Sequence record: PQ511146.1
Origin: Escherichia phage NHEP1
Strand: one strand, 5' to 3'
Length of the DNA stretch: 64,000 nucleotides
In this document: positions 6,209 through 63,961 of the stretch, piece after piece
Numbering within the stretch: position 1 is the first letter of the stretch
Layout: every line of letters begins with the position of its first letter
The notes under the pieces: generated by a model
Databases searched by the model: none
Seen by the model: the letters and a program-made list of their open reading frames with translations, nothing else
What the model was told of the DNA's origin: nothing
Made by a program: the position numbers and the translations under genes

Positions 6209-6997
6209 ATGGGTCGAGCTAAAGAAACAAAACGCATGCGTGATGAAGCCAGAGAGGCTCGCAAATCTGATCGCCTGCGTAAGGCTGCTGAGAAATTTGC
6301 TGACGAACGAGAGCACACAGCTCCAGCTCTCCGACCAATGAACAAAAAGCAGCAAAAGTATCTTGATTATCTAGGATCGCGTAAGATTATTATTGTAAAC
6401 GGTGTGTTTGGATCCGGTAAGACATTCATGGCATCCGCATATGCAGGTGATCTTTTGCGTAAGAACGAGATTGATAAGATCATTGTTGCACGCCCTTACG
6501 TTCAGACAGGAAAGACTTCAGGGTTTAAACCTGGAAACGCAATGCAGAAACTGTGGCCCTATCTCCGAAGCATGATGGACACGATTTGTCGTCGTGTTGG
6601 CAAAGGTGCTTTTGCCGCAATGCTGGGAGATGGTCAGAACAGTCGTATCGAGATCTGTGAAGTTGAAAGCATTCGTGGTCGTAGTTTCGATGAGCGGTGC
6701 TTTGTCCTAATTGACGAGGCACAGCAAACTAACCCTGAAGAAATGTTGTCAATTATCACAAGGATCTCTGATCAGGCCACACTTGTAATCATGGGTGATA
6801 ATAGCCAACGTGACATCCCTGGTAAGTCTGGACTTGCATGGGTAACGGATTTCTTTACTCGTCATCCAGATCCTGAGGTTGGGATGATTAGCTTTGATAG
6901 CCCAGATGATGTCGTTCGTTCCGGGTTGGGTCGTCAGATTGCACTCAATCTTATCGAGGATCGTGCAAATCATATTTGGACCCCTGTTTCCGAGTAA
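6209..6997 (+). CDS. phoH: PhoH-like ATPase
   Basis: Walker A GVFGSGKT and PhoH-like downstream motifs; RBS AAAGGAG upstream. Confidence 0.9.
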   Translation: MGRAKETKRMRDEAREARKSDRLRKAAEKFADEREHTAPALRPMNKKQQKYLDYLGSRKIIIVNGVFGSGKTFMASAYAGDLLRKNEIDKIIVARPYVQTGKTSGFKPGNAMQKLWPYLRSMMDTICRRVGKGAFAAMLGDGQNSRIEICEVESIRGRSFDERCFVLIDEAQQTNPEEMLSIITRISDQATLVIMGDNSQRDIPGKSGLAWVTDFFTRHPDPEVGMISFDSPDDVVRSGLGRQIALNLIEDRANHIWTPVSE

Positions 6998-20763: not shown

Positions 20764-23270
20764 CACACAAGTCTGCTTTGCAGGTTTAGCTGCTCAGCTA
20801 AGGTTCTGGAGGCACCTATAACATCTTCCAACTAAATTTCCTACCAACACAGTTACTTACCTACCACACATGACTGTTTGCTTGTTTAGTGAGCAGTCAT
20901 CACTTGACATTCTTGCCTATCTTGATAAAATTAAGTTCTTCTCTTTTCTTTTACCGAGTAATTCGGGTTTTCTGTTCTCTTCGGTTTGAAGGGGTATGGA
21001 GATACACCTGAGTGAACAGGGTGAACAACCGAACCTTTAGCTATGGCATTAGCATGGCGAAGCGGACGGGTGACGAAAGAGGGGCCGGAGGACACCAGTC
21101 ACTGCCATATAGTATATGGGTGATAACCTGAAGAGTCTGAATAAGTGTTTAAGTACCAGTCAGAGGAAAAGGTGAATGGTAGCCGAAGGGGGAGGGGGGT
21201 TTCTTATATCTTTAATTTGTATACTTTATATACACTTGTAAACCAATTCAATTAGAATCTGTTTACCACACAAAGGGGATGGAGACAAATATCACCTATT
21301 AAACTTGAATTATTTATAGAAAATACCACAACACCCGTTAAGTCTTTGATTTTACACACAAATCTTACAAATATCCTACCTCCACATTTAACATACTTGT
21401 AACATATTCCATATCCTACCTGCCTGATCAATTTACTCCATCACATTCCCACATTTTCCCTGTCTGTACTACCCCACCCCCGCCGGGAGTCCCGTCATAT
21501 CTGGCTTTCCAGCAAATATCACACCAACAAATATCATCACCTGAAGAGGGTTTCATCCCATAATACCTGCCTTACCTGAAGAGCGCTTCATACACCACGT
21601 AAATTTTTTAATTGACCCCTCCCCGCCGCCAGAGAGGTTGGCTTTTCCCACACAGGCCTGAAGAGTCAGCCAGAAATATCTGAACAGGCAGTTATGTCCC
21701 GATTTTGTGCTTGTCCTACAGGAGTGCTGCCAGGCGGACGGAATGGGAATACTTCTCATTCTTATAATAATTCTCAAATATCGAGGCAGTGAGGCAAATT
21801 AATAGGCCAGGCCGTTCACACAGTGGCACAACATTTGCAATCTATCTTGTGTGGATGAATGAGAATACCTATCATTGTGAGAATGGTTATCATTACGGGC
21901 AATTTAACATAATACCCATTATGCGCACCACTGGCGATACATACAGGGATTGATAACATGGGTTACTGTTTACGCATATAACAATTATATTTCTTACTAT
22001 TTGTGTGGGATATAGTTAGCAACCAATAGATTAGATATTGACCTGCAGACTTCTGACCGTCCAGACGTCTAAACGCCCACACAACAAGGATTATACATAC
22101 ACTCCTGCATGTAACCAGGGCCGCAAAAATGCTACCATACCAGTTTGTAAATTTTTCATGCAGCACTTGACAAAGAGGAGAAAAACTTGTCTGACACAAT
22201 GTGACAATTTTGTCACTTTTGACACTTTTACCTTTGACACAATATGACACAATAACGGCTGTTACTATTCCATATCTCACTGTTTACGCCTGAATAGTTT
22301 ACGCAAAAACTGTTTACACAGAGATGATAAGCCATGCCATTCGTTTGCATGAAAACAATTAACAAGATAACAATTGACAAGCTAACAGCCAACAAGCTGA
22401 CAGTTAATAAGTTAATAAGTTATGACATAATATAAAAGCAGGGCAACTATTAGAAGATCTATAGTTGCCTTGCTTGTTATGTCATGATTAACTAAATACA
22501 AGGCAACTATGATCTGAATAATAGATTGCAGACAAACTATCACGGGGGTGATTGTTACTGCTTTTATATTATGTCGCGACTCCGTCGCGCCATGCCATTC
22601 GTTTGCATAGTTGCCTTATTGTTACAGGTAAAACAATTACATTATTAATTATTTCTTATCTTTCTCTTAGTCATCTAATGATTCCAGTCAGTATAGTAAT
22701 GTACAGTAAACATTAGACGACTAAATATTTCTCTGTGTATAATAACTTATCGTGACAATTTCGAACTGTTTACGAAAAATGTTGACACCTGAGCTGATTT
22801 ATGTTATGCAGTTTACACGAATAATTATTTTATGCAGGTATTGACTATTCCGTTATTCTGTGGTTGGAATAAATACTTTGCAGACTATAGAATGGCGTGC
22901 GTACGTGAATTCTGAGATCTGGCGGCTATAGTTATACTCGATTTTTCGCGTAGAACACGCTTTCGATGCTGTGTAAGTGTATGACTTATAAAGATTTTTA
23001 GTTGTTGACAAGATATTGGAGATGTGCATCAGGTTAAAATTTGTGCAATAGCGGCATTACGTGCACTTTTGGGAGAGAAAACGGGTAAAAATGGCCCTGC
23101 TACCACACAATGAAAGATTATGCAATAGTTATTTTCCATGTATATTTGTACAGTATGTGGGATTGATGGCTAGTCAATTATTCCACTTGCCAGGTAGGGC
23201 CGTTTATGGTAGGAGAAGAGCAGACAAAAAGAAAGGGGCCTTTAAGCCCCTTGATAATTCAGTTAAGAAA
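20764..23270. repeat. ORF-poor, repeat-dense non-coding zone at the convergence of plus and minus transcription blocks
   Basis: No convincing ORF of 100 aa or more; at least five short repeat families seen (see findings). Confidence 0.6.
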
Positions 23271-57224: not shown

Positions 57225-57250
57225 CTCCAAATAGAAAATCCCCGCCGAAG
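57225..57250 (-). terminator. Terminator hairpin (minus strand)
   Basis: Minus strand CCCCGCTTCGGCGGGG followed by ATTTTCTATTT. Confidence 0.5.
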
Positions 57251-57268
57251 CGGGGTGTGTCTTAGAAA

Positions 57269-57658: not shown

Positions 57659-58843
57659 TCAAGCTTTAGCTAAAATGGCGCTAAACTCTTCACCAAACTC
57701 TTTTACAATCTTCATCAGGTTTGGGTATGCTTTGATCAGCTGAGCGACGATCTTGTCCCTGCCTTTACCAATAAGTAAGGCATTTCCTAAGGCGTTAGGT
57801 TTCATCATCGCCATAAAGACTGAGAATACAAAGTCTCGGTTCTCATCCTTGAAATTTTCCCAAAGGAAATCAAGGAAGTTTGCCACACAGCTGACAAGAT
57901 CTTCGTCGGAGATACTTGCATTTTCCATCATATTACGAATAGCGATACAACCTTCTGACCCCAGAATCCACAAGATGTCTGGCTGCTTAGGACCTACATA
58001 TTCTTTGCAGCCTCCTGCCATAATCCGACCGATTTCTGGCAAGTTTCGTTTCTTGGTGTGGTAGGTCCAAATTTCTACCGCTGCAGTGTGACCAATTGCA
58101 CCTTGTAGAAGGACACGGGCCATAGCGTCAGAAATAATACCGCTGTCAAAATCGTGCAGGATGTCAGATGCAGCAACCCAAGATCGCGGTGTGGCAAAAG
58201 ATGGACAATTAATCTCAGCCATGGCCTCATAATTATCAATGGCTGATGGGACTCTTTTCAGATATCCAATTACAGAGGAGTGCACCCCATTAAGGAATGC
58301 ATAGTCCTCAATAAACACCTCTGCACTGCTTGTAACTTCTACAATGATAAAGCGGTTAGCTAGAGGAGCTTCGAGCGCCGAAAGAACAGCACCGTCTGTA
58401 GCACGGTTACCTGCAGCTACAAAAACAGAGCCCTTAGGAAATGCATAGGTGCCGCACTTGTGGTCGAGCATAATTTGCATTGCAACCTTCTGCAGGTAGT
58501 TATCTGCATGAGTAAGCTCGTCTAGAAAGATAATTCCGCTCCAGTCCGGATCTGCAGGCCAAAATTCTGGAATTGCAAACACTGTACGTGTAGTCCCATC
58601 CGACTCTACAGGGATAGGTAGCCCAGATAAGTCAGCAGGGTCTTTATCTGACAGTCGCACGTCAACAAGGTTGTCATCTCGCTCACCGAACATATTATCA
58701 GCGATCTGCTTCATCACCTGACTTTTACCCACACCCATTGGTCCCAAAATTAGGACAGATCGGCTATGACGTTGGGCAAACTGAATAATGGCTGGCAACT
58801 CACGGACAGTGATTTGACCACTTTCGAATACGTTTCTTGACAT
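57659..58843 (-). CDS. MoxR-like AAA+ ATPase
   Basis: Walker A GPMGVGKS; Walker B IIFLDELTHA; about 390 aa. Confidence 0.8.
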   Translation of the reverse strand: MSRNVFESGQITVRELPAIIQFAQRHSRSVLILGPMGVGKSQVMKQIADNMFGERDDNLVDVRLSDKDPADLSGLPIPVESDGTTRTVFAIPEFWPADPDWSGIIFLDELTHADNYLQKVAMQIMLDHKCGTYAFPKGSVFVAAGNRATDGAVLSALEAPLANRFIIVEVTSSAEVFIEDYAFLNGVHSSVIGYLKRVPSAIDNYEAMAEINCPSFATPRSWVAASDILHDFDSGIISDAMARVLLQGAIGHTAAVEIWTYHTKKRNLPEIGRIMAGGCKEYVGPKQPDILWILGSEGCIAIRNMMENASISDEDLVSCVANFLDFLWENFKDENRDFVFSVFMAMMKPNALGNALLIGKGRDKIVAQLIKAYPNLMKIVKEFGEEFSAILAKA

Positions 58844-60160: not shown

Positions 60161-60439
60161 TTAGGCAACTGTCATTTTACATTCTTTGAATTTTAGCACA
60201 AGACGGTGATTGTGTCTAGTGTCTAAAAAGATTTTTTCAACCATCAGGCACACGGTGTAACCGTCCATCTTATTGACAACAAAATCTCCAGGGTAAGGGA
60301 GAATGTCACCTGGACTGGGGAAACATAGCCCACTCAAGAAGGCATCGTCGGTGGTGGATTTAATGGATTTCCACACACTGTCTGCCTGAATATTTTCACC
60401 CACATAATATACACTACCACATGCCTTCATCATAGTCAA
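60161..60439 (-). CDS. Hypothetical protein
   Basis: Track ORF 92 aa. Confidence 0.5.
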   Translation of the reverse strand: MTMMKACGSVYYVGENIQADSVWKSIKSTTDDAFLSGLCFPSPGDILPYPGDFVVNKMDGYTVCLMVEKIFLDTRHNHRLVLKFKECKMTVA

Positions 60440-61335
60440 ATCTCCGCGTAAATTAAACTGGAATCAGTATACTTCTTTAGTGGGTAAATATCCTGTCCAT
60501 AGATGCCGTCATTAAACACCTCATCTACCCAAAGGCTACACTTATATCCCATCATCTCTAAAACACCCATCTCTTCTTCGGTAAACTTATCACCGCTCTT
60601 GCAAGATGTCAATACCTCATTCTGTACTCTTGCCACCTCGAAGCGGTTATTGGCAATATCGCTATTAGCGATCAAATACTCACCCAAAGGGTGTGCGGCA
60701 TTAAAGATGCACAGTGGACGGTTGACGTAATAGTCTCCAGGTGTATAAAAATTATTGAGGTCTTTCACTAGAACATTCTTATCAGTCACTTCATTCATAA
60801 CATCATGCATATCGCACATCTTTATATGTTTGAGGATTCCATCCCCCATCACAAAATAAAAACTTGCTGAAACACTTTCGGCATAGATCTTACTAGATCC
60901 GTTGTAGTTGTATTTTACTCGGATGCTAACGGGGGTTTTTCCTGTCGCGTTAGCCATCATCCAAAGAAATGGCAGCTCATACTTCTCCTCTGAGGAAACA
61001 AAAGGTGAAGTTGCCAGAGATCGGAAACCTCCAGAGAAGTTGAAAGTTACAGAACCGCTCCGGCGGTATGATACTGCGTATTCCACTTTTATATCAACAT
61101 ATCCGTTGGAGTAAGTATGCCCTCCATTATCAAGGTATGTCCACTTATCGGACCCAGATACCAACCTCCGCTCAATTACCTTCATCACTACAGGGATTAG
61201 CGGATTAGTACAAACCGATTTTGAAGTAGCTTTATCATCCAAAGCCTCGTAAATTGCAGAAAGGATATCACCTGCTGAGAGATTGGTTGTGATATCTTGT
61301 TTCCACCTGGTGCTAAAACTGTTAAGATTTGCCAT
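60436..61335 (-). CDS. Hypothetical protein
   Basis: Track ORF 299 aa; first gene of the minus-strand block. Confidence 0.55.
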   Translation of the reverse strand: MANLNSFSTRWKQDITTNLSAGDILSAIYEALDDKATSKSVCTNPLIPVVMKVIERRLVSGSDKWTYLDNGGHTYSNGYVDIKVEYAVSYRRSGSVTFNFSGGFRSLATSPFVSSEEKYELPFLWMMANATGKTPVSIRVKYNYNGSSKIYAESVSASFYFVMGDGILKHIKMCDMHDVMNEVTDKNVLVKDLNNFYTPGDYYVNRPLCIFNAAHPLGEYLIANSDIANNRFEVARVQNEVLTSCKSGDKFTEEEMGVLEMMGYKCSLWVDEVFNDGIYGQDIYPLKKYTDSSLIYAEI

Positions 61336-61375
61336 GAGTAAGTGCTCCTATGTTAGTTTTCTTTTGAATGGGTGC

Positions 61376-61446
61376 ACTATATCGTGGATTTAGAGTAAAG
61401 TCAACACGTTTTTCAGGTTGACATCTTCTCAGGCACTTGGTAAGAT
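61376..61446. promoter_or_regulatory. Divergent sigma70-like promoter pair
   Basis: Plus: TTGACA (61418-61423)-N17-TAAGAT (61441-61446); minus: TTGACT (plus 61399-61404)-N17-TATAGT (plus 61376-61381). Confidence 0.5.
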
Positions 61447-61477
61447 TTCTCCACCCACAGAGAACAAGAGACAACTC

Positions 61478-62467
61478 ATGAATCTTGAAAAATATTATAC
61501 ACCAGAAGAGTTAGAGCGCTTGCTCAAAAAATACAGACGCAAACAGAATAACGCACGGAAACGGGATATAGAGTTCAACCTGTCATGGGAAGAATATCTC
61601 CTATTTGGTAAAAAACTTTTAGGAGAGGGAGTATGCGACTATACCCTTATACCTTTCGACATGCACACAGATGAAAACGGACTGGGAAATCCTTTCTACC
61701 CATCTCTGGAGCGGATAGATGATGAAGGTCCTTATGCGGTTGACAATTGTTGTGTGGTGGGATTGAGATGCAACTCCCTAAAGGACTGCCTGGTAGATAA
61801 AAAGACCGCAGTCTTGATTAAAGACAAAACTGATCGAAAAATTGTCCAGCAGATGATGCTCCACCTGAGCGAAGAGCGTATGGAGAAATTGAAAGGTGAT
61901 TACACTTTTGAAGATTTCATCTTGCAATATGGAACGGAAGAGGATAAACTAGCACTCTTTGACGAAGAATGGGAGGAAGATATGTCACCGATGCAGGATT
62001 TTAAAAACTTCATGGCTAATCGTGGAGCCAACAAGCACATTTCTGACATTGTAAACGAGCCTGTAGTAGAGGAGATTGGAGAGATGACGCAACAGGCTTA
62101 CGAAGAGGAAAAAGAGCCTCAAGTGGTCGAAGAAGAGCTTACAGAAGAGGTTCCTGCACTGCCTGACGATGTTGAGATTGCCAAAGCTTACACTTTCTAT
62201 TGCCAGACGTTCTACGATGCAGGTATGAAAGTTGATCTGTCATTCAGCCAGTTTAAGAGCACATACATTCGAAAATGTTGTGCTTTAACTGGTGAACGTC
62301 TCGGTGCCGGACTTAAACCCCTATTAGTTACCGACTGGAACAAAGGTTTCACCAAAGGTAACTTCATGGTAGTATCTCCAATCATGGAGAAGGCTATGAC
62401 AGACCTTATGAAGACCACTCGCATGACAATGACCGAGTTGGCTGGTATTTTCAAGCACGTTAAATAA
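61478..62467 (+). CDS. Hypothetical protein
   Basis: ATG 61478 (MNLEKYY); the longer track ORF begins at a TTG that is the promoter -35. Confidence 0.55.
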   Translation: MNLEKYYTPEELERLLKKYRRKQNNARKRDIEFNLSWEEYLLFGKKLLGEGVCDYTLIPFDMHTDENGLGNPFYPSLERIDDEGPYAVDNCCVVGLRCNSLKDCLVDKKTAVLIKDKTDRKIVQQMMLHLSEERMEKLKGDYTFEDFILQYGTEEDKLALFDEEWEEDMSPMQDFKNFMANRGANKHISDIVNEPVVEEIGEMTQQAYEEEKEPQVVEEELTEEVPALPDDVEIAKAYTFYCQTFYDAGMKVDLSFSQFKSTYIRKCCALTGERLGAGLKPLLVTDWNKGFTKGNFMVVSPIMEKAMTDLMKTTRMTMTELAGIFKHVK

Positions 62468-62500
62468 TGACAGGGGCCATTGGCCCCTTCTGGAGTTTTA

Positions 62501-63961
62501 ATGGATAGCAGAAGTTCAGAAATCATTACCGCACAAAAAGATGATGCCTTGCGAATGCTGCAGGCCGCTCGCATGTACCTTCTTGAAAAGCTGCCGTTTT
62601 ATGGCACACTGTTGTCAGGGTTGCAGTTCGTAGAAAACCACACATGGTGCTCCACTATGGCAACAGACCATAAACGCATCTACTACAGCCCTGAGTTCAT
62701 TATGGGGTTGGCAGATGAGCGTAAAACCATTCTTAAAGCATCTCTGACTGACAAGCAGTTTGAGATGGCTGAAGTTTTCTATTCCCCAAAATCTGTGAAA
62801 GAGGTGGCCTTTCTTCTGTCACATGAGGTGGGGCATATTATCTGTGATCATCTGGTCCGTGGTAAAAGCTTTGAGCCGGAACTGTTCAATATTGCTTGTG
62901 ATCACGTTATCAACACAGGTCTTGTGGTTGACTTTAGCAAGCCTCCTTGTGTTTTCTTCCCGAAGGGGAAAAGCACTGAGTTCGTAAAAGGTAAGCCTTT
63001 TGGCTTCTTAGCTAATTGCTACTGCGACATGAAGTTTCATGGATGGATTGCGGAGAACGTCTATGCAGTTCTTGATAAACAAAGAGATCAGAATGGCGGT
63101 AAAAGTAAGAACGGTAAAGGTGAGAACTCCCAAGGAGATAAACGACAAACCGATGATCACATGAGCGGGAACGGTGGCACTAGTGATGATCTTGGAAAGG
63201 CTATGGGGTATGATCAGCCGCAACCAGTAATCAGTCAATCGGATAAAGATCAGGCCATGCAGGACTCTGGTGACATGTTGGAAGCAGCAATGCAAGCTTC
63301 AGGAGGTCGTTGCCCCGAGGCGGTGCGCGAGTTTGTCAAAAACAGAGGCAAGCCTGTAATCAATTATATAGATATTATTAAGCAACGTATGTTATCTAAA
63401 AGAAAGGCTGAGTTAACCTACAGAAAACCTGGTCGCCGATCTGGGTCTTTGACCACCACAATGCGAAAAGTTGGAGCTATAAACAAGAATCAACACGTTA
63501 TTGTTCCTGGTCGTAATCCGGAAAACACTATAGATATTGTAGTGGCTTTAGACGTTTCTGGGTCGATCTCACAAAGAACTTTAAAGAAAATGTTCAATGA
63601 GATCACCGGGTTGTGCAATTTGTATAAAGAGTTTAAGGTTACGATGTTCTGTTGGTCAACCGAGGTTGGAGAGGTTAAAGTATACACTCGCGGTAACATC
63701 GATGAGATGATCAACTATGAGGTCCACTCAACATGGGGCACAACAGCCGCCTGCGTGTTCGAGTATCTTGATGCTAACATACCGAATGCAAAAGATGTCA
63801 TCGTCCTTACCGACCTCTACTTTGAGCATAACTTTGAACAAAAGGCTGTTGACAACAAGTGGAAAAAGTACGATACTTTATGGGTTCTCACCGAAGGGTA
63901 TAATAAAAATTATATCCCGAGCTTTGGGAAAACTGTGGAATTAATCGAGTACGCTAAGTAA
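62501..63961 (+). CDS. VWA-domain protein with N-terminal HExxH metallopeptidase-like motif
   Basis: HEVGHIICDH and MIDAS-like DVSGS motifs; ATG 62501 after GGGGCC/GGCCCC hairpin. Confidence 0.7.
   Translation: MDSRSSEIITAQKDDALRMLQAARMYLLEKLPFYGTLLSGLQFVENHTWCSTMATDHKRIYYSPEFIMGLADERKTILKASLTDKQFEMAEVFYSPKSVKEVAFLLSHEVGHIICDHLVRGKSFEPELFNIACDHVINTGLVVDFSKPPCVFFPKGKSTEFVKGKPFGFLANCYCDMKFHGWIAENVYAVLDKQRDQNGGKSKNGKGENSQGDKRQTDDHMSGNGGTSDDLGKAMGYDQPQPVISQSDKDQAMQDSGDMLEAAMQASGGRCPEAVREFVKNRGKPVINYIDIIKQRMLSKRKAELTYRKPGRRSGSLTTTMRKVGAINKNQHVIVPGRNPENTIDIVVALDVSGSISQRTLKKMFNEITGLCNLYKEFKVTMFCWSTEVGEVKVYTRGNIDEMINYEVHSTWGTTAACVFEYLDANIPNAKDVIVLTDLYFEHNFEQKAVDNKWKKYDTLWVLTEGYNKNYIPSFGKTVELIEYAK

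Follow-up and report, generated by a model that had tools for sequence, protein, structure and literature searches.

The window, i.e., the whole stretch of 64 kb that was analysed, is DNA of a Vequintavirus (rV5-like myophage of E. coli), as seen from a comparison of region 60400-63000 with phage records. The comparison gave 117 matching records with identities of 84-99%. Escherichia phages of Vequintavirus made up nearly all of them, and the best matches were B9-1 (99.3%) and S127 BCL3. Identity of the stretch to rV5 was 89.6% over 221 bp. A gap of 142 bp separates the divergent homologues of rV5 gp10 and gp11, and both gene orientation and GC skew change sign at this gap. Its GC content is 0.39-0.41, compared to 0.43 for the whole window. 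The genes on both sides and the first terminator on the left are:

57229-57255, minus strand: first intrinsic terminator past the leftward promoter, identical to rV5 t003 (rV5 Table S4), 4.1 kb downstream
57659-58843, minus strand: MoxR-like AAA ATPase, on the left arm of the promoter pair
60436-61335, minus strand: gp10 homologue, first leftward gene, 299 aa (phrog_12338, function unknown)
61478-62467, plus strand: gp11 homologue, first rightward gene, 329 aa (phrog_3118, E 3.6e-111)
62501-63961, plus strand: gp12 homologue, second rightward gene, putative metallopeptidase with a VWA-like part (Pfam DUF2201_N 1.1e-28, DUF2201 3.6e-11); start taken from the B9-1 annotation

Two promoter-like elements point away from each other in the gap. 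According to the sequence and a consensus scan, the complete back-to-back feature spans 61376-61446 (71 bp). Its parts and the predicted leaders are given below, with the variation among 18 homologous gaps (14 from Vequintavirus and the four IMG/VR contigs L006-L009, whose gp11 is 64-67% identical):

61336-61369, minus strand: predicted gp10 mRNA leader, 34 nt; putative start A 61369, 7 nt past the -10; Shine-Dalgarno AGGAG at 61349-61345
61376-61381, minus strand: -10 hexamer TATAGT of the leftward promoter (homologue of rV5 P010), 5/6 to TATAAT
61382-61398, minus strand: spacer of the leftward promoter, 17 nt; this length in 18/18 loci, 16/17 columns vary
61399-61404, minus strand: -35 hexamer TTGACT of the leftward promoter, 5/6 to TTGACA; invariant in 18/18 loci
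61405-61417, no strand: segment of 13 bp between the -35 hexamers with the T5/A5 tract 61409-61413 (from the sequence and the 18-locus alignment)
61418-61423, plus strand: -35 hexamer TTGACA of the rightward promoter (homologue of rV5 P011), 6/6; invariant in 18/18 loci
61424-61440, plus strand: spacer of the rightward promoter, 17 nt, ending in the extended -10 TG; TG invariant, 15/15 non-TG columns vary
61441-61446, plus strand: -10 hexamer TAAGAT of the rightward promoter, 4/6 to TATAAT; T1, A2, and T6 invariant
61453-61477, plus strand: predicted gp11 mRNA leader, 25 nt; putative start A 61453; weak Shine-Dalgarno AAGAGA at 61466-61471

A preliminary description of this DNA had placed a TTGACA-N17-TAAGAT element facing rightward and a TTGACT-N17-TATAGT element facing leftward within 70 bp at the strand switch. 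We found both as described, at 61418-61446 on the plus strand and at 61404-61376 on the minus strand, respectively. They had been called consensus promoters; with a score of 10/12 each they are near-consensus and short of the full consensus. The 14 bp given for the distance between the -35 boxes is the difference of their coordinates, and the intervening sequence has 13 bp. Both elements combine a -35 hexamer close to TTGACA with a -10 hexamer carrying A2 and T6 and a spacer of 17 bp, as is characteristic of sigma-70 promoters. The rightward promoter has TG at 61438-61439 and thus an extended -10 (TGgTAAGAT, 61438-61446), while the leftward promoter has no TG upstream of its -10. The distance from the end of the -10 to the co-oriented start codon is 40 nt on the left (ATG 61335) and 31 nt on the right (ATG 61478), and Shine-Dalgarno sequences precede both start codons.

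On the strand of the leftward promoter, AAAAA is present at -44 to -40, which resembles an UP element and is conserved in the 18 loci. The proximal-subsite A-tract of UP elements is expected at about -46 to -38. Seen from the rightward promoter the same tract lies upstream as T5. The leftward promoter also has a G at -36, as does the family of promoter-like sites in the window: the 47 co-oriented sites favour G at this position (23/47) and have about 50% A at -45 to -39. The invariance of TTTT at 61410-61413 in the 18 loci can be understood from this, because the A-tract at -45 to -39 belongs to the phage's own promoter family. The leftward discriminator between the -10 and the predicted start (GCACCC, 61370-61375, minus strand) is rich in G+C; the 14 Vequintavirus loci have GCACCC and L006-L009 have the likewise G+C-rich TCGCCA. 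In E. coli, G+C-rich discriminators are linked to short-lived open complexes and stringent control.

The preliminary description had also recognized that the start assigned to the rightward gene by the ORF finder was in fact the -35 hexamer. This proved to be correct: TTG 61418 represents the first three bases of TTGACA and is a spurious start. The annotations of B9-1, FV3, and EmilHeitz let gp11 start at the ATG equivalent to 61478, and the tblastn alignments with distant relatives start at residues 1-4 of the 329-aa protein. L006-L009 have a 1-nt indel between the rightward -10 and the gp11 ATG, and the protein read upstream of the ATG is unrelated in L006. We therefore let the gp11 homologue begin at ATG 61478. 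In several GenBank records the gene begins inside the promoter; in 10C2_SA_NWU, isim, and HdK5 (L018, L019, and L020, locus position 416), the gp11 CDS starts at an ATG 3 nt upstream of TTGACA. The rV5 record (L003, 6787) begins gp11 at a TTG, 14 codons too late.

The consensus scan (threshold 10/12) was applied to the window and to dinucleotide-preserving shuffles. Sites scoring at least 10/12 numbered 53 in the window compared to 19.1 +/- 4.7 in the shuffles, and 48 of the 53 were co-oriented with the local genes (binomial p = 7e-10). The gp10/gp11 pair belongs to the lower tier of this set, which comprises four sites with 12/12 and many with 11/12. From the shuffle rate, the chance of a site of at least 10/12 in the 142-bp gap is about 0.02 on one given strand and about 4e-4 on both.

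The 14 Vequintavirus loci used for alignment were the window, B9-1, FV3, rV5, two IMG/VR contigs, and eight GenBank phages chosen across the identity range. All 18 regions were found by a regular expression requiring both -35 hexamers, and each matched at the homologous place; a coordinate-based alignment made without this expression showed the same invariance in the nine loci that it covered. Invariant in the 18 loci were both -35 hexamers, the TG, T1, A2, and T6 of the rightward -10, and positions 1, 2, and 6 of the leftward -10. The leftward -10 occurred as TATAGT, TACAGT, or TATTCT and the rightward -10 as TAAGAT, TACGAT, TAATGT, or TAGTGT. Both spacers were exactly 17 nt long in 18/18 loci while their sequence varied freely. 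Indels of 1 nt were confined to the segment between the promoters (13 or 14 bp) and to the leaders. Invariant columns made up 20/26 of the core and 1/32 of the spacers (Fisher p = 2e-9, a value that overstates independence because the 18 loci are related).

Consensus scans are known for many false positives, and 19 sites of at least 10/12 would be expected by chance in the window. Both matches could thus be accidents of an A+T-rich gap, without function. We consider this very improbable in view of the joint chance calculated for the gap and of hexamers that stayed invariant while the spacers diverged completely. The elements also have the correct orientation and lie at a proper distance from the start codons, and they recur in genera with intergenic sequences that cannot be aligned, as described below.

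The two promoters are not new as a prediction. For rV5, P010 and P011 were predicted in 2013 and called bidirectional promoters (Kropinski et al. 2013, Virol J 10:76, Table S4; DQ832317). P010 is listed there at rV5 6636..6681(-) as CAAAAACGTG TTGACT TTACTCTAAATCTCCGA TATAGT, and P011 at 6685..6713(+) as TTGACA TCTGTTGAGACAAT TGA TACGAT. Judged from the alignment, the pair in the window is the orthologue of P010/P011: it has the homologous gp10/gp11 position and orientation and is alignable with rV5 6567-6810. P010 and its counterpart have identical hexamers (TTGACT-17-TATAGT) and differ at 2 spacer positions. The rightward promoter shares with P011 the TTGACA -35, the 17-nt spacer, and the TG of the extended -10, but has TAAGAT instead of TACGAT as -10 and differs at several spacer positions. 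Both pairs are predictions only. In our search of the literature, which was incomplete in coverage and in part poorly targeted, neither mapped 5' ends nor RNA-seq or reporter data turned up for any phage of the Vequintavirinae. What we add to the 2013 paper is footprinting of the gp10/gp11 promoter pair and its conservation across genera.

Outside Vequintavirus the gap cannot be aligned with that of the window, but a near-consensus rightward promoter is still found upstream of the gp11 homologue. It reads TTGACA-17-GATAAT in SSE121, 4MG, and Mydo, and TTGACA-17-AATAAT in EspYZU14; these GATAAT and AATAAT versions, from Seunavirus and Mydovirus, score 11/12. Henunavirus pEp_SNUABM_01 has TTGACA-16-CATAAT with TG and Serratia phage Kashira has TTGACA-18-GATACT. 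In Seunavirus, Mydovirus, and Henunavirus the left-hand gene is again divergent, and the -35 boxes are only 3 bp apart. A leftward TTGATT-16/17-TATNNT, weak with 8-9/12, can be aligned in four to five relatives that do not belong to Vequintavirus. Across genera, the two promoters do not keep a constant phasing relative to each other. From the recurrence of the divergent pair in other genera, we concluded that the back-to-back architecture is probably ancestral to the subfamily Vequintavirinae.

The same comparison bears on the reading that only the rightward element works, with the leftward one weak or inactive and the gp10 side transcribed from elsewhere or at another time. The rightward promoter is indeed the better conserved one, with 10-11/12 in six genera or lineages versus 8-9/12 for the leftward one outside Vequintavirus, and it is the only one kept in Kashira. 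The leftward -10 is degraded to TACAGT in one Vequintavirus, L016, and the GenBank record of rV5 (DQ832317) annotates P11 only. We regard this reading as unlikely. No gene lies upstream at the strand switch that could feed transcripts into gp10, and the leftward promoter is listed as P010 in rV5 Table S4. In addition, the leftward -35 is invariant in the 18 loci, its spacer is fixed at 17, its upstream A-tract is conserved, and Seunavirus, Mydovirus, and Henunavirus have an aligned TTGATT/TATNNT pair. The conserved hexamers and TG, the 17-bp spacers with free spacer sequence, and the recurrence across genera indicate that the pair very probably consists of two working sigma-70 promoters.

In the gp11-homologue leader of Seunavirus, Mydovirus, and Henunavirus we observed an invariant AACGGG-N5/6-CCCA with variable loop just before the Shine-Dalgarno sequence (L010 at about 2463-2478; also L011, L012, L013, and L015), which possibly forms a small hairpin. 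Neither the window nor Vequintavirus has this motif.

The arrangement corresponds to a back-to-back pair, as the core promoters lie divergently on opposite strands, do not overlap, and have abutting upstream regions; Beck and Warren (1988) are said to have defined such a class of divergent promoters. Bidirectional promoters of another kind, reportedly described by Warman et al. in 2021, arise from symmetry of the -10 and have start sites about 18 bp apart. They share with our pair the divergent transcription out of one short region. The -10 hexamers of the window (61376-61381 and 61441-61446) are 59 bp apart, so there is no shared -10, and each has a separate -35; we therefore ruled out the symmetry type.

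Together with the flanking G/C, the two -35 boxes form a perfect 6-bp inverted repeat, GTCAAC-N11-GTTGAC (61400-61422), which together with the central T-tract is invariant in the 18 loci. It could, in addition or alternatively, serve as operator for a dimeric regulator of phage or host origin, which would switch both directions together. We consider this improbable. Any two divergent gTTGAC elements form this palindrome by themselves, and G at -36 is common in the promoters of the window in general. The spacing of the arms shifts by 1 nt in L004 and L007, in which the segment between the -35 boxes has a different length, and the 3-bp interval in Seunavirus is flanked by the non-symmetric arms AATCAA/TTGACA. 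Furthermore, the conserved positions are exactly those contacted by sigma-70. The gap holds no other dyad or repeated operator-like motif. A repeat search in 61250-61560 found no iterons or operator-like dyads and a single match, an 11-mer of the rightward -10 inside gp10 that may be due to chance. A switch controlled by operators as in lambda OR is not indicated, as no repeated dyads besides the -35 pair and no adjacent repressor gene were seen; neither the gp10 nor the gp11 homologue gave a Pfam, NCBIfam, or PDB match or a match to HTH or repressor families.

The 11-mer match lies in a third promoter-like site, which is directed rightward and antisense to the 5' codons of gp10 (61300-61328, plus strand, TTTCCA-17-TAAGAT with TG, 8/12). 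Within it, TGTTAAGATTT is a repeat of TGGTAAGATTT from the rightward -10 region. An equivalent antisense site reaches 9/12 in L005 (1823-1851, TTGCCA) and in L006-L009 (about 1797-1825, TTGACT-17-TAATAT), although the N-termini of gp10 differ. This site may reflect chance or coding constraint; that it adds antisense control of gp10 is conceivable but quite unlikely.

Start sites were placed at the usual 7-nt distance after the -10 and at a purine. About 84 bp lie between the predicted starts. Two bound polymerases would therefore overlap in their upstream contacts by about 27 bp. In lambda, the PR and PRM start sites are 82 bp apart, and the strong promoter, when occupied by polymerase, reportedly slows the weaker one. 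As in PR/PRM, the two core promoters of the window are separate, lie on opposite strands, and adjoin each other with their upstream regions, and the start-to-start distance is similar. The pair in the window differs by the lack of operators, repressor gene, and repeated dyads, by two near-consensus -35 boxes, and by an inter-promoter spacing that is not conserved among the relatives. Some interference between the two promoters, or coupling through supercoiling, is possible. The variation of the spacing (13-14 bp versus 3 bp in Seunavirus) argues against a fixed stereospecific coupling. Another reading is a competitive or supercoiling-coupled toggle, in which the promoters are not independent and set the ratio of the two arms; the products concerned would include the MoxR-like ATPase of the left arm and, from the right arm, the VWA-domain protein that is its likely partner. 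The shared conserved A/T tract (UP-like for the leftward promoter) and the overlap of the footprints may provide a basis for it, but we find a toggle quite unlikely.

The leaders gave no indication of structure. Folding compared to shuffles revealed no significant structure in the gp10 leader (z +1.2) or the gp11 leader (z -0.24), and a reading as attenuator or riboswitch-like leader was dropped, since neither leader folds beyond its shuffles. An Rfam scan of the whole window had no match, hence no known RNA element is present in the gap or leaders.

We consider it likely that the 142-bp gap contains two separate, back-to-back host sigma-70 promoters, one for the operon on the gp10 side and one for the operon on the gp11 side. 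The sigma-70 holoenzyme of host RNA polymerase would read both, as these phages encode no RNA polymerase of their own. The rV5-like phages also lack homologues of the T4-type proteins gp55, gp33, and MotA (Kropinski et al. 2013, Virol J 10:76). Leftward transcription would start near 61369 and would cover gp10 and the next seven genes, including the MoxR-like AAA ATPase, until t003, with some read-through into sleB and rIIA possible. Rightward transcription would start near 61453 and cover gp11, gp12, and then, as in the relatives, small genes over about 7 kb until a bidirectional terminator is reached.

The virulent coliphages T4 (early), T5, and T7 (A1-A3) have early promoters for the unmodified host sigma-70 polymerase. 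The promoters of the window are like these in their near-consensus hexamers, the optimal 17-nt spacer, the A-rich upstream sequence, and the many copies in the early region. Another likeness is the location of rIIA and rIIB in the same strand block. The difference is that for Vequintavirus we infer the early timing. The pair would represent ordinary members of a dense set of about 45 host-type promoters in a presumably early region; the two are the outermost promoters of their strand blocks and would not be master switches.

In this respect the preliminary description, which saw a likely control point for two large divergent transcription units, was right about divergent promoters at the strand switch and overstated their role as a control point and the size of the units. 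The window has about 48 co-oriented sites, of which many correspond to other rV5 promoters, t003 follows 4.1 kb downstream, and the rightward unit, of only about 7 kb in relatives, has internal promoters P20 and P25. The minus-strand block comprises about 39 kb within the window, and in rV5 it is grouped as genes 10-1-238-164 (Kropinski et al. 2013, Virol J 10:76). Besides t003, it contains the further rV5 terminators t232, t213, t184, and t177 and many rV5 promoters (P231, P224, P220, P205, and others). From the position of t003 and from these additional terminators and promoters it follows that the leftward promoter most likely drives gp10 to gp3 directly, and t003 is the likely end of this operon. 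The rightward unit comprises genes 11-26 in the relatives, with the bidirectional terminator at its end; the window contains only its first 2.5 kb. The arrangement of sites suggests that the pair most likely fires the two promoter-proximal operons and not the entire strand blocks.

A strand switch with a change in GC skew may also point to a replication origin, for example one primed by a transcript, which the promoters would serve. Cumulative GC skew has a local minimum at about 61000-61450, and a skew change is present at the homologous position in rV5, the authors attributing all skew changes to the orientation of transcription (Kropinski et al. 2013, Virol J 10:76). Iterons, repeats, and a marked A+T peak are all missing in the gap. 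An origin as the primary function of the gap is extremely improbable, and we rejected it, as the flip in GC skew is explained by gene orientation.

The products of the two promoter-proximal genes carry labels of varying quality. For the gp10 homologue, the widespread GenBank label "alpha 1-3 fucosyltransferase" is unsupported by Pfam, NCBIfam, and PHROGs. Product labels of gp11 conflict between records (anti-sigma factor, anti-termination, HNH endonuclease). About 100 N-terminal aa of gp11 resemble PHROGs for Srd, "decoy of sigma70", and endonuclease VII (E 1e-9 to 1e-13), and residues 13-110 match phrog_4592 "decoy of host sigma70" (2.7e-12) and phrog_1400 "Srd" (9.6e-10). The "anti-sigma" label of gp11 is based only on this weak N-terminal PHROG similarity.

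A MoxR-like AAA ATPase and a DUF2201 metallopeptidase/VWA-like protein are usually adjacent partners, and here they are located on opposite arms of the promoter pair. The same split is seen in the Erwinia phage pEp_SNUABM_01 (L013, Henunavirus), with the ATPase on the left and a 1.4-kb gene on the right.

The exact positions of the promoters are useful for transcript mapping or for the engineering of therapeutic or biocontrol phages, and a bidirectional expression cassette would fit naturally into the gp10/gp11 gap. Outside annotation the significance is small, and no new question is opened.

Two further observations concern other parts of the data. About 1.2 kb of the window (20764-21962) at the convergent junction of the plus and minus blocks, corresponding to the "non-coding" box of the rV5 map, has no ORF of at least 75 aa and no Rfam match. 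It contains a promoter-like site at 20904-20931 (plus strand, TTGACA-16-TAAAAT with TG, 11/12), followed after about 22 nt by a terminator-like hairpin CCGAGTAATTCGG with a T-run (20954-20976, plus strand); together they could give a very short RNA. The second observation concerns 16 UNVERIFIED records of "Campylobacter phage" (GenBank MG0656xx, e.g., L022 = MG065644), which are 90-97% identical to E. coli Vequintavirus genomes in this part of the genome; this suggests that the host was mislabelled or that contamination occurred.
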